From Dictyostelium discoideum (taxonomy: Eukaryota): DNA of 64,000 nucleotides. Below are positions 27,360-31,873 of this stretch, piece after piece. Location of the stretch: NCBI GenBank assembly GCA_000004695.1, contig CM000154.2, positions 1,120,001-1,184,000 of the forward strand. Direction: 5' to 3'. Below the pieces are notes generated by a model. The model made no database searches. It was not told the origin of the DNA and saw only the letters and a program-made list of their open reading frames with translations. Positions within the stretch are counted from its first letter, which is position 1. Every line of letters starts with the position of its first letter. A program made the translations under genes and the position numbers.

Positions 27360-30300
27360 ATGCAACCAAATCAATTAAAAAGACCATCATTAAATCATAG
27401 ATTTGAGCCATATACACTCAAACATTTAACAATTTGTAAAAGATGTGAAAAAGAAATTATTGGTGTATCAAATTCAGCTCAAATATGTTACAGTAAGATG
27501 TTATAAATATTTTTTTTTATTTTTATAAATTTTTATTTATTTATTTTTATAATACTAAAATATTTTTTTTTTTTTTTTATTTACTTTTTTTATTATTATT
27601 TTTTTTATTTTTTAAAAATAAACCCAATCCCCTTTCAATCTCACTCTCCCCACTAATCAAAAAAATCTTTATTTTTTTTTTTTTTTCCACACACATTTTT
27701 TTTTTTTTTTTTTTTTTTTTATTTTTTTAATTTTTGTAATTTTTCAAATTTATCTATTTTTAGGTTGTAAAAATATTTATCATACAAGATGTTGTAAAGA
27801 AATAGAAACAAAGAAATTAGAATTAATATGTCTCGGTCCACCAAAAAAGATAAAAACAGTTTGGAAAATAGCTTTAATTCCAAGTTTATTTAAATCTTTA
27901 TTTTCAAAATCAAGTAAGTATTATTTTTATAATTTTATTTATTTATTTTTTTTATTTATTTTTATTAACATTTCAATCATTTATTTATAAATAAAAATAA
28001 TAATAATAATTATTAAAGAGGTAATAGTTAATTATAGTCAGCAATTAATAAATGAAAAAACATTTACGTTAGAAGCTATAAAAATATGGGTCGATGTGAT
28101 GAGAGTTGATAACGATAGATATATACAAATAACTAAATATTACGATATATTCGAGTATGTAGATGTTTAAAATTATTTAAATATATATATATATTTAATT
28201 TTATATTAATTATTATTATTGTTATTATTATAGTAATTTAAAAATTAGTGAAGAAGTTTTTAATTATATAATAAATATGATCATTGAAAAGGATATAAAT
28301 TTACCAATGGTTAATATAGAATTTCCTGTCGATCTACATTCCAGTGTACAACAAAATCAATATATAAATGACCAAGCTGTATCACAAGAACAAAAACAAC
28401 AACAACAACAACTACAACAACAACTAATATTACAACAACAACAACAACAACAACTACAACAACAACAACTTAATGAATCCTATGATAATAGTACCATTAA
28501 TAATCTAAACTATAGCAATGATATTTCTAATGCATTTTCACCAAGATCCGTATTTAGTGCATTGGAATTGTCATCAAATGCACAGGTAATGAATGCATTG
28601 GAATTAAGTGTACCTTTTAACGAAGACGATAATAATGATGATAGTACATTAAGTGCAAGCACCTACAATAGAAGAAATAGTAATAAAAATAAAAATAGTA
28701 ATAAAAACAATACATCTTCATCTTCATCGGCACCAGCATCAGCATCTTCATCAAAACATTCAAATTTAAATGAATCCTTTTCATCATCAACAACTGCAGC
28801 GGCAATTGTAAATAATATCGATAATAGTAATAATAGTAATAATTTGGCGGCGTTATCTCCAAGATCAACAGCATCCACTACTACAACTACTACAACTACA
28901 ACTACTACAACATCACCAAAATCAAATAATCATCATCATCATCAACATCATCATCAAAATAGTAAATCAAGAAAACCATCAACAATTATAATTAATAAAA
29001 AAAAGATTAAAAGTCCAAAGAATAAATCAAGTAAACGATATATGTTAACAGAACAATATAAATGGTCAACACAAATGATTGGATTACAAATACTATATAG
29101 AATATTATTTAATGAAAAGAATATGATTCATTTTTTAAATGATAAATTTATGGCACCATTGGCTGTCTTATATCCAATATTGATTAATCGTTTAAAGGCA
29201 ATTTCATTAGGGAGTGATAATAATAATAATAATAATAACAACAACAATAATAACAACAATAATAGTAACAATAATAATAATAATAATAATGAAGATTTCA
29301 AATTACTTTCTATTAATTGTAAGTTATTAATATCAATTTTGAATAGAATGTTAGACTTTGAAACTTTGATACCACTATTTTTCACCAATAAAGTAATTGA
29401 ATCTATTGCTAAAGTAAATTCAGATCGTGAATCATTAAGAGGTAAATTAAGTAAGGATGAATTTGAAGTAATGGATAGAGTGGTATTGTTATTGGGTAAA
29501 TATTTTCATTTGGAACCATATCATAGTTTGATAGAAAGAAGACCAGAATGGATTGATATGATTATCAACTATAGTGTCGAGCATAAAGTTGGAATTTTAC
29601 ATCACGAAATCACCAGAAATGAGGTGAAAATCAATGTTGAAATTTATGATTCACCATTGTGTACAGTGTATAGTGGCGTTTATAATGGTATGGATGTTGC
29701 TATTAAAGAGTTTTCTCAAGATGGTATGGGTTTCGATTGGGTTTCATTTTATAAGGAGATTACTATCGTATCAGCATCTCAACATCCAAAAGTTATCAAA
29801 TGCTATGGCGCCCATACAAAGAATACCAATAAACCATTCATTGTCACAGAGTTATGTAGTAGAGGTACCATATCGAATGCATTGAATCAAATTAGAAAAA
29901 CAACGGGTCAACCACCAGCTATACCTTTGATAGTTCATATGGCAATTGATGCCGCTCAATCATTGGAGTTTATTCATTCAAAAAATATAATTCATCGTGA
30001 TGTAAAGGGTAATAATTTCTTGGTCAATGAAAATTGGGAAGTGAAACTCATCGATTTTGGCGTTTCCAGATTCGTAGAGGCTAGATTAGGTTACACCATC
30101 GTTGGAACTCCGAATTATATGGCTTGTGAACTTTTCAATGGTCAACCATATCATCAACCAGCCGATGTCTTTTCATTTGGTGTAGTTTTATGGGAGATGT
30201 TCACTCAAGATACCCCATATAAAAACTTGACAAGAATTGAACAAGCTTTATTCGTACAAAGTGGTGGTAGACCAACAATTCCACCAACTGTTCCAACCAC

Positions 30301-31873
30301 TATTGCAAATCTAATCGAAAGTTGTTGGGTACAAACACCTCATCTTCGTCCAACCTTTACAGAGATCCTCAAGGTCTTCTATTCCCTCCTAACTCCACCA
30401 CCTGATAATGAACATTTGGTACCAGTGGTAACTAGATTATTCAATTCCTCGATCATTCAATTGAAAATTTTAAAATATTTAGATACGAATACCCTCTTAA
30501 ATTGTGGTTTGGCTTCTCGTCAACTAAGATATAACCTTTACAATGGTATCTCTATGGAAAAGAAAACATTTTCAAACTTTTGGATAAAATTAATGAATTT
30601 TTCAAAATCTAAATTCAGATATGAATTATTATCACCATCTGAAAGAAAAAATGATTCAACTGGTAGTTCTCCAATTATTATGTGTATTCAACCATTTTCT
30701 CCAAATTCTCAATCAAAGAATAATAATAATAATAAAAATCATCATAGTGATGATATTATCGATGATGATGATGATGATGATGATGATAAAACATATCCTT
30801 CATTAGTAATTCCATTTTCAGCTTCTTCACCAACTCTTAATATAAATAGTGAAAATAAAAATAATAATAATGTTAATGAGGATAAAACTTCTGATACAAG
30901 TAGTAATAGTAATAATAATAATAATAATAATAATAATAATAATAATAATAATAATAATAATAATAATAATAACAATAACAATAATAATAGCAATAATAAT
31001 AATAATAATAATAATTTAAGACAAAATCAATTTTTAGGAAATGATTTAAATAAAAGTCAAGACAATAATCAATTAATGGATGGAAGTGGTGGTCGAAGGG
31101 ATAGAAGTAGAAGTAAAAGCAGAAGTAGAAGTGCAAGTCCTTCAAACAATCATCTTCATGACAAAAGTTTAATGGGTTTATTATCTTCTTCCCAAACTAG
31201 TGAGATTGGTGATAATAATACAAATAATAATAGTGATAATGAAGTTGATAATAATAATAATAATAATAATAATAATAATAATAATAATAATAATAATAAT
31301 AATAATAATAATAATAATAATAATAATAATAATAATAATAATAATAATAATAATAATAATAACAATAATATAGATAATAATAATAATAATAAAGATAATA
31401 ATAATATTTTATCATCTGAAAATAATAATAATACTACAGTTATTGAACAACAACAACAACAACAAAATGTTACTAATAATAATAGTAATGAACCAAAAAA
31501 TAGTAATAATGAACCAAAAAATAGTAATATTACAAATAATATAGTTAATCCAAATGTTTTTACAACTACAACCACAACAACTACTACGACTCGAACTACT
31601 ACAACAACTGTTTATGATGGGACAGGTACATTAAATAACCTATTATTTAAAATCAATGATGGTGGAATAATATCATCAGATTCTTCAAATTCATTGTCTG
31701 ACCCAGAGAGTGAAGAATATTCAATGCCAATTAAAAGATCATCAAGTATAAGATCACCAGGTCCCGTATCTGCTATATCTCCTCTTTTTAAAAGTTTATC
31801 TCCAAATTTATCTCCAATCGTTCCAAATATTATAAATGGTTATTCTTTTGAGAATACCAGTGCTTGTGATTAA
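27360..31873 (+). CDS. Multi-exon protein kinase with an atypical N-terminal C1 (phorbol-ester/DAG-type) zinc finger, a TKL-like kinase domain, an F-box-like segment and a long Asn/Ser-rich tail. Exons are 27360..27492, 27764..27913, 28019..28154 and 28234..31873.
   Basis: Exons 1 and 2 together give HRFEPYTLKHLTICKRCEKEIIGVSNSAQICY|S|CKNIYHTRCCKEI…LIC, with C1-like spacing H-x12-C-x2-C-x13-C-x2-C-x4-H-x2-C. The donors are GTAAGA (27493), GTAAGT (27914) and GTATGT (28155). The acceptors are TTTTTAG (27762-27763), TTAAAG (28017-28018) and TTATAG (28232-28233). All phases are consistent. Kinase motifs are present: VAIKEF, HRDVKGNNFLV, DFGVSR, GTPNYMACE and SFGVVLWEM. The glycine loop is degenerate. 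An F-box-like segment reads VVTRLFNSSIIQLKILKYLDTNTLLNCGLASRQLRYN. Confidence 0.7.
31250..31362 (+). repeat. Pure (AAT)n array of about 37 units coding polyN in the kinase gene tail.
   Basis: This is a direct read. A second array lies at about 30911-30972. Confidence 0.9.

Follow-up and report, generated by a model that had tools for sequence, protein, structure and literature searches.

The protein kinases C (PKC) of metazoans and fungi belong to the AGC group and carry a C1 domain N-terminal to a Ser/Thr kinase domain; their characteristic features are an AGC kinase with its C-terminal tail, C1 domains in tandem and, in the classical and novel isoforms, a C2 domain. As established by mutagenesis of PKC C1 domains, Pro11, Gly23, Gln27, and Gly28, together with hydrophobic loop residues, are required for phorbol-ester binding. 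In Dictyostelium, the association of a kinase with an F-box is known from MEKK-alpha (mkkA), a STE11-type kinase having WD40 repeats as its substrate-receptor module, the F-box/WD40 region of which was reportedly found in 1998 to govern its ubiquitin-dependent turnover. Canonical F-box proteins such as Skp2, FBXL2, and beta-TrCP usually carry the F-box N-terminal to receptor domains consisting of leucine-rich repeats (LRR) or WD40 repeats, and keep the L-P...W positions of this domain. The gene studied here, pkcA of Dictyostelium discoideum, lies on the forward strand of a 64,000-nucleotide stretch of DNA (contig CM000154.2, positions 1,120,001 to 1,184,000), which is called the window below and to which all positions refer. 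An earlier note, made from the letters of this window, had read the locus as a four-exon gene combining an atypical C1 zinc finger, a TKL-like kinase, and an F-box-like segment, and had described this combination as not being a standard architecture.

The locus is D. discoideum pkcA, DDB0231197. The primers printed for the reverse transcription PCR (RT-PCR) of pkcA in a paper on chemorepulsion (PMC6589559) each have one exact match in the window, in convergent orientation, and the 399-amino acid (aa) prefix of DDB0231197 printed in Table S2 of the 2006 Dictyostelium kinome paper (PMC1420674), beginning with MQPNQLKRPSLNHRFEPYTLKHLTICKRCEK, is identical to the product of the window when exon 4 is taken to start at 28249. 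These two matches together identify the locus. The kinome authors reported that three kinases bear a C1 domain, DDB0231197 being one of them; this TKL-group protein is entered in Table S2 as TKL/Dicty5, 'partial kd', with VAIK, HRDVKGNN, and DFG, and the remark 'lacks G52'. In 2022, pkcA was included among the 83 predicted Dictyostelium F-boxes aligned in Fig. S3 of Boland et al. (2022; PMC9485057). The primer sites, the 399 aa, the C1 domain, the TKL kinase lacking G52, and the F-box are thus those of a single, already known gene, in which the C1 domain, the TKL kinase, and the missing Gly loop have been on record since 2006 and the F-box since 2022; the novelty implied for the combination in the earlier note has to be given up. 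The mutant phenotypes have also been published: in pkcA-null cells, the chemorepulsion induced by AprA and polyphosphate fails, and the speed of movement toward cAMP is abnormally high. The reading of the raw sequence had therefore rebuilt a curated, experimentally studied gene, including a zinc finger present only after splicing. The interest which remains lies in what the F-box and the glycine-free loop do, and in the mismatch between the name of the gene and the family of its kinase.

It is highly probable, in our judgment, that pkcA encodes a TKL kinase consisting, in this order, of an atypical C1 domain, a small module, a low-complexity linker, a helical domain, a kinase domain with a Y-D/E-S-P-L-C loop, an F-box, and an Asn-rich tail, and that the protein works in the way proposed below. 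As in PKC, the C1 domain lies N-terminal to the kinase, and its best matches in the PDB are PKC C1 domains; unlike PKC, PkcA has a TKL kinase and a single, atypical C1 domain, it carries no C2 domain, pseudosubstrate, or AGC tail, and an F-box has been added. With MEKK-alpha, which figures in the same table of PMC9485057, it shares the combination of a kinase with an F-box, but it has no WD40, LRR, or Kelch repeats, and its F-box is C-terminal to a TKL kinase. The helical F-box is homologous at the family level to those of the canonical F-box proteins, but it follows the kinase, and the L-P...W positions are degenerate in D. discoideum. Among paralogous kinase domains, those of Rck1 and the LIM-domain kinases, which belong to the TKL/Dicty5 family (PMC1420674), come closest, whereas these proteins carry RGS or LIM domains and normal VAIK/HRDLK/DFG motifs, and have neither a C1 domain nor an F-box; the best match obtained in the full-length search was a Cavenderia RGS-domain kinase.

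The window has a G+C content of 22.7%, and its composition is A+T-rich and Dictyostelium-like. When the four exons (Table 1) are spliced, a 4059-nucleotide (nt) open frame is obtained, encoding 1352 aa plus a stop codon, and the three introns are all of the GT..AG type, with 88-94% A+T. Exon 1 stops one base into codon 45, which places a phase-1 intron between the third and fourth Cys residues of the C1 domain. The last exon appears in the list of open reading frames (ORFs) as one long ORF (28277-31873), and exon 1 contributes only a 48-aa ORF, falling under the default limit of 60 aa; the earlier note had remarked that the last exon alone is displayed. That exons 1-4 are joined in one gene is supported by the open frame, by the splice sites, by the colinearity of the orthologues described below, and by DDB0231197, which has the same exons 1-3. 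The model of the earlier note differs from DDB0231197 at the acceptor of intron 3 only: the 2006 acceptor is located 15 nt downstream (AG at 28247-28248, as against 28232-28233). Both sites are in frame, and use of the distal one drops the residues NLKIS, giving a protein of 1347 rather than 1352 aa. The orthologues available for this comparison, which come from outside the genus Dictyostelium, carry five aligned residues at this point (DIFDNIKINQEIFDY in Cavenderia and HIFNNMPISQEIFDF in Polysphondylium), which favors the proximal acceptor over the 2006 site, unless both sites are used alternatively. This point is relevant to those working on pkcA, since the 2006 acceptor omits five conserved residues. 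No tRNA or other non-coding feature was found when looked for in this region.

With the full-length query, the search for relatives was dominated by poly-Asn and poly-Gln words, so that generic kinases alone were obtained, and the low-complexity parts were then removed. Colinear orthologues were found in Polysphondylium violaceum, Cavenderia fasciculata (where the source name is 'PKC domain-containing protein'), Acytostelium subglobosum, and Synstelium polycarpum, and further colinear relatives consisted of one EukProt protein and two environmental proteins. The orthologue alignment shows no break where exon 2 is joined to exon 3 and exon 3 to exon 4, and in four relatives a C1 domain extends over the exon 1-2 junction. 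The C1 domain, the kinase, and the F-box occur on a single polypeptide in P0128, P0163, and P0296, the last of which is a Trinity transcript of the tubulinean Flabellula baltica, where a single ORF comprises C1_1 (27.8 bits) as well as the kinase and the F-box. This architecture therefore occurs on one mRNA well outside the dictyostelids; Flabellula, the only amoebozoan outside the dictyostelids known here by name, shares with them both the architecture and the glycine-free P-loop. The profile search of representatives mostly returned proteins matched in several separate stretches, and few of the matches reached the F-box. Exact look-ups of the 1352-aa, 1347-aa, and ORF-only proteins in a collection of 15 billion proteins found none of them, and the search of the protein collection with the N-terminal 177 aa alone gave no matches. 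None of the protein searches retrieved the D. discoideum protein or an orthologue from the genus Dictyostelium (from D. purpureum, for example); other D. discoideum and D. purpureum proteins do occur in the collection searched.

The Cys-His cluster of the spliced protein, H13-x12-C26-x2-C29-x13-C43-x2-C46-x4-H51-x2-C54, matches exactly the pattern reported earlier, including the phase-1 intron by which it is split. When the whole window was translated in six frames without splicing, this core pattern had 0 matches; it is therefore created by splicing. In comparison with the reference spacing H-x12-C-x2-C-x13/14-C-x2-C-x4-H-x2-C-x7-C, the first seven ligands are canonical, and the eighth Cys is either C67, which is located 12 residues past C54 versus the canonical 7, or the adjacent C55. 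The corresponding gap amounts to 10-13 residues in the dictyostelid orthologues and is strictly canonical only in P0128. Pfam C1_1 (PF00130) gave 26.7 bits with the full protein, 27.7 bits after the removal of low-complexity parts, and 30.4 bits with the N-terminus alone, which is a narrow pass at a gathering cutoff of 26.5 bits; the relatives score 44-57 bits, and the margin of the D. discoideum protein is thin. When the N-terminal 177 aa were compared with the PDB, 21 of the 22 sequence matches were C1 domains, the best of which was PKC-theta C1B (E 0.004), with all the ligands in register. In this alignment, L11, G23, S27, and A28 occupy the positions of Pro11, Gly23, Gln27, and Gly28, so that the D. 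discoideum protein does not have the residue set of typical C1 domains, which bind diacylglycerol (DAG) and phorbol esters; P0127 and P0128, which are less closely related, retain P11, G23, and Q-G. These data support the view that the N-terminus of PkcA is an atypical C1 domain, narrowly assigned by the Pfam threshold. Given the thin margin and the absence of Pro11 and Gln27, lipid binding is uncertain.

The TKL-like kinase announced in the earlier note is present with all the features attributed to it, namely VAIK (aa 628-631), HRDVKGNNFLV (aa 727-737) with V in the HRD-x-K position, DFGVSR (aa 747-752), and a degenerate Gly loop. The Pfam scores were 169.7 bits (9.7e-50) in the case of PK_Tyr_Ser-Thr and 152.4 bits (2e-44) in that of Pkinase. 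The closest solved kinases in terms of sequence are CTR1 (5.5e-38) and ZAK/MLT, and CTR1 was also the top Foldseek match of a 474-aa AlphaFold2 (AF2) model, which returned kinases alone and was uninformative about the F-box. PkcA is placed in the TKL group by the fact that the nearest profiles and structures are those of TKL and TK kinases and that the catalytic K, E, HRD, N, and DFG are present. At the Gly-loop site (aa 610-621; 29642-29677), which reads IYDSPLCTVYSG, none of the three glycines of GxGxxG is kept. When this loop was compared with that of relatives P0121-P0128, P0163, P0296, and P0297, the motif I-Y-[DEQ]-S-[PLI]-L-C-x-V-[YFW]-x-G, with Cys occupying the position of the third glycine, proved to be shared by 10 of the 11 aligned family members, the two Flabellula proteins among them; the exception is P0128, which reads IYNNAQC. 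The preservation of this motif from dictyostelids to Flabellula suggests a family hallmark rather than decay. As the Lys, Glu, HRD, Asn, and DFG are conserved along with the replacement motif, the kinase is probably catalytically competent despite its glycine-free loop, and its ATP site would be unusual but functional.

The post-kinase segment which the earlier note had called F-box-like was located at aa 874-913 and is supported by the orthologues and by the published list, but one detail was misread, since the 'V' of VxRQLR is an Ala (LASRQLR). With the D. discoideum protein alone, the Pfam profiles stay below their cutoffs: F-box (PF00646) gave 13.5 bits with the full protein and 17.5 bits with the isolated segment (cutoff 20.5), and F-box-like (PF12937) 16.8 and 21 bits, respectively (cutoff 24.3). 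Judged by the refuting condition set in the earlier note, the C1 domain thus survives by a small margin, and the F-box, in this protein taken singly, does not. The D. discoideum copy has no Leu-Pro, Leu stands for the conserved Trp, and helix 1 contains extra residues. The orthologues do pass: among the eight aligned sequences (the D. discoideum protein and seven relatives), six match F-box-like and five match F-box. The F-box scores amount to 30.9 bits (second value 29.7) in Cavenderia fasciculata (P0122), 25.4 bits in P0128 (Logan), 24.4 and 24.0 bits in the Flabellula baltica proteins P0210 and P0296, and 21.5 bits in P0163 (JGI), and the relative P0297 retains the canonical I-P-D-D-L start of the F-box. 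A family profile of the segment was compared with the PDB: the 15 best matches were all F-box proteins, as were 21 among the 29 matches listed, with FBXL2 (1.3e-4) and FBXW8 (5e-4) in the lead, followed by proteins such as FBXL5, Skp2, and beta-TrCP, each of which was aligned over its own F-box. For comparison with the three-helix fold of F-boxes, the segment was modeled with AF2, and the model comprises four short helices over aa 871-914 (segment residues 10-14, 18-27, 30-39, and 41-53), with a predicted local distance difference test (pLDDT) score of 64-84 in the helices and a mean of 72. In the Foldseek search with this model, 12 of the 13 matches were F-box proteins, nearly all of which had been solved with Skp1, and the eight closest superimposed with root-mean-square deviations of 1.1-2.4 A across 26-45 columns; the E-values ranged between 2.7 and 9.5, all of them exceeding 1 owing to the small size of the domain. 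In Fig. S3 of PMC9485057, the pkcA segment is printed as RLFNSSI.QLKILKYL-DTNTL.NCGLA-SRQLRYNL, which matches the stretch at aa 874-913 exactly, and the entry reads class 'bs', other domains 'ZF+Kinase', and 'PhyA enhanced: slug'. The key of that paper explains b as a BLASTp prediction in dictyBase and s as the co-immunoprecipitation (co-IP) with Skp1-myc (mAb 9E10) in slugs; pkcA is not in class 'a', which means that it had no UniProt F-box annotation in December 2021. Taking these data together, we conclude that this family has a genuine F-box, judging by its sequence profile, and that the D. discoideum copy is degenerate.

Two other readings of the gene as a whole have to be considered. If the upstream exons were a separate small gene, or were not expressed, the protein would start at the ATG at 28277 in the long ORF. 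The mechanical ORF scan does yield this ORF alone, and the splice junctions are predicted from sequence comparison, which also counts against the reading proposed above. However, four dictyostelids, the Flabellula transcript, and P0127 are colinear with PkcA across the exon 2-3 and 3-4 junctions, a C1 domain extends over the exon 1-2 junction in Cavenderia, the EukProt protein P0124, the JGI relative P0127, and a Flabellula transcript as well, the C1 motif forms only upon splicing, the curated 2006 model has these exons, and the upstream neighbor, the gene for formylglycinamide ribonucleotide (FGAR) amidotransferase, stops at 25420, leaving a distance of 1.9 kb, so that this reading is hardly conceivable. 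A similar verdict, only slightly less severe, applies to the idea that PkcA is a true PKC orthologue activated by Ca2+ and DAG. In several papers, it is called a 'PKC orthologue' dependent on Ca2+ and DAG, and it shows the sole C1-plus-kinase arrangement termed PKC-like in the field. Its kinase is nevertheless of the TKL and not the AGC type, since the solved structures nearest to it are those of CTR1, ZAK/MLT, and tyrosine kinases, and the top 60 kinase matches in the PDB do not include a single PKC; neither a C2 nor an AGC C-terminal domain (Pkinase_C) was matched in Pfam at E-values up to 10; there is a single C1 domain instead of a tandem, from which Pro11, Gln27, and Gly28 are missing; and the kinome paper found no PKC in Dictyostelium (PMC1420674). 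In view of the TKL kinase, the atypical C1 domain, and the absence of C2, the label of a Ca2+/DAG-activated PKC rests on the name and not on the sequence, which offers no support for it: on these features PkcA is not a member of the PKC family, and a true PKC at this locus is very improbable.

The F-box leaves more room for doubt. The post-kinase segment might be a helical extension of the kinase which resembles an F-box and does not bind Skp1, in which case the recovery of PkcA with Skp1 would be indirect or would reflect an SCF (Skp1-cullin-F-box ubiquitin ligase) substrate. The scores of the D. discoideum segment below the Pfam thresholds, the loss of the Leu-Pro and Trp which most F-boxes keep, the extra residues in helix 1, the segment Foldseek E-values above 1 with a pLDDT of only 56-84, and the lack of a UniProt F-box annotation are all consistent with this possibility, and co-IP with Skp1 is no proof of direct binding via aa 874-913. 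This alternative nevertheless seems quite unlikely, as it is contradicted by the orthologues passing the curated thresholds with scores of up to 30.9 bits, by the canonical start of P0297, by the 15 best PDB matches of the family profile and 12 of the 13 structural matches, which are F-box proteins aligned on their F-boxes in the former case and solved nearly always with Skp1 in the latter, and by the recovery of PkcA with Skp1 in slugs (PMC9485057). Two further points weigh against the overall reading of PkcA as a C1-kinase-F-box protein. The C1 domain clears its cutoff by 0.2 bits at full length, without Pro11 and Gln27, and the P-loop contains no glycine at all, which goes together with the 'partial kd' flag of the kinome authors, so that catalysis is a prediction. 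The fact that the order C1/helical domain/kinase/F-box and the glycine-free P-loop have both been kept from dictyostelids to a tubulinean argues that the F-box and the ATP-site loop are functional.

The following mechanism can be proposed for PkcA as a C1-TKL kinase-F-box protein. The C1 domain would recruit PkcA to membranes or lipid signals, perhaps without DAG, as the usual DAG/phorbol-ester residues are missing. The kinase, if active as predicted, would signal in chemotaxis, chemorepulsion, and aggregation, in keeping with the published null phenotypes. The F-box may dock onto Skp1, whereby the kinase would join an SCF ubiquitin ligase; the association with Skp1 in slugs has been published (PMC9485057). 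Within this complex, PkcA might serve as a substrate receptor, or its own turnover might be regulated, by analogy with MEKK-alpha. A more specific version, which we regard as rather unlikely, is that PkcA and its amoebozoan relatives are SCF substrate receptors in which the kinase replaces the WD40 or LRR module. If this were the case, the kinase with its conserved glycine-free loop would capture substrates, or phosphorylate them and hand them over, so that they are ubiquitinated at membranes to which the C1 domain points, a single polypeptide would both write and read the phosphodegron, and it would be a mistake to interpret the pkcA-null phenotypes as the loss of a DAG/Ca2+-activated PKC.

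Table 1. Features of the pkcA locus in window coordinates, with the splice sites and protein residues concerned.
Feature	Position (strand)	Protein residues	Description
Exon 1	27360..27492 (+)		Start codon and H13, C26, C29, C43; phase 1 end; equals the DDB0231197 N-terminus
Intron 1	27493..27763 (+)		271 nt; GTAAG...TTTAG; 88% A+T; spanned by the Pfam C1_1 match (aa 13-60)
Exon 2	27764..27913 (+)		C46, H51, C54, C55, C67 of C1 and beginning of the N-terminal module
Intron 2	27914..28018 (+)		105 nt; GTAAGT...AAAG; 94% A+T
Exon 3	28019..28154 (+)		Codes for the N-terminal module (…LEAIKIWVDVMRVDNDRYIQITKYYDIFD)
Intron 3 (model of the earlier note)	28155..28233 (+)		79 nt; GTATGT...TATAG; 92% A+T
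Exon 4	28234..31873 (+), including stop		Low-complexity linker, helical domain, kinase, F-box, Asn-rich tail
C1 zinc finger	27396..27831 (+)	13-67	Split by intron 1; Pfam C1_1 and PDB matches
N-terminal module after C1	27877-28285 (+)	83-157	Conserved in six orthologues
Alpha-helical domain before the kinase	29033..29611 (+)	407-599	Poly-Asn insert inside; conserved in orthologues
TKL-group kinase domain	29642..30391 (+)		Gly loop replaced by IYDSPLCTVYSG; VAIK, HRDVKGNN, DFG intact
pkcA RT-PCR amplicon	30058..30404 (+)		Forward primer 30058-30080 (+), reverse primer 30384-30404 (-); PMC6589559
F-box (predicted)	30434..30553 (+)	874-913	Degenerate in D. discoideum; Pfam sub-threshold; orthologues, profile, and PMC9485057 Fig. 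S3
Asn/Ser/Thr-rich low-complexity tail	30713..31870 (+)	967-1352	Mostly (AAT)n-encoded

The other regions of the protein can be described more briefly. No family match was obtained in the Pfam search of the small module following the C1 domain (aa 83-157). The helical domain (aa 407-599), which contains the poly-Asn insert at aa 468-492, appears in the AF2 model as stacked helices (pLDDT 66-91); the Pfam search of this domain gave no family in the D. discoideum protein and weak matches to Rcd1, TPR_SYO1, and ARMC5 in the relatives, and the modeled fold may be ARM-like. The Asn/Ser/Thr-rich tail described in the earlier note begins at aa 967 and comprises about 390 aa; it is missing from the orthologues and species-specific. 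Long (AAT)n runs at 30900-31010 and 31250-31375 correspond to poly-Asn tracts of this tail. Intron 1 contains a C-rich, less A+T-biased stretch at 27610-27670 (aaacccaatcccctttcaatctcactctccccactaatc), which is atypical for a Dictyostelium intron.

Several other genes were recognized in the window. The upstream neighbor of pkcA, a purL-type FGAR amidotransferase gene at 21268-25420 (+), is distributed over two ORFs (21268-22113 and 22388-25420), between which an intron is presumed to lie. A CoA transferase is encoded at 2377-3615 (+) and a Neugrin/MRP-L20-like protein at 12902-14443 (-), and on the other side of pkcA, the window contains the genes for a DUF3818 (PX-protein associated) protein at 46711-49551 (-) and a UbiA prenyltransferase at 55203-56549 (-).

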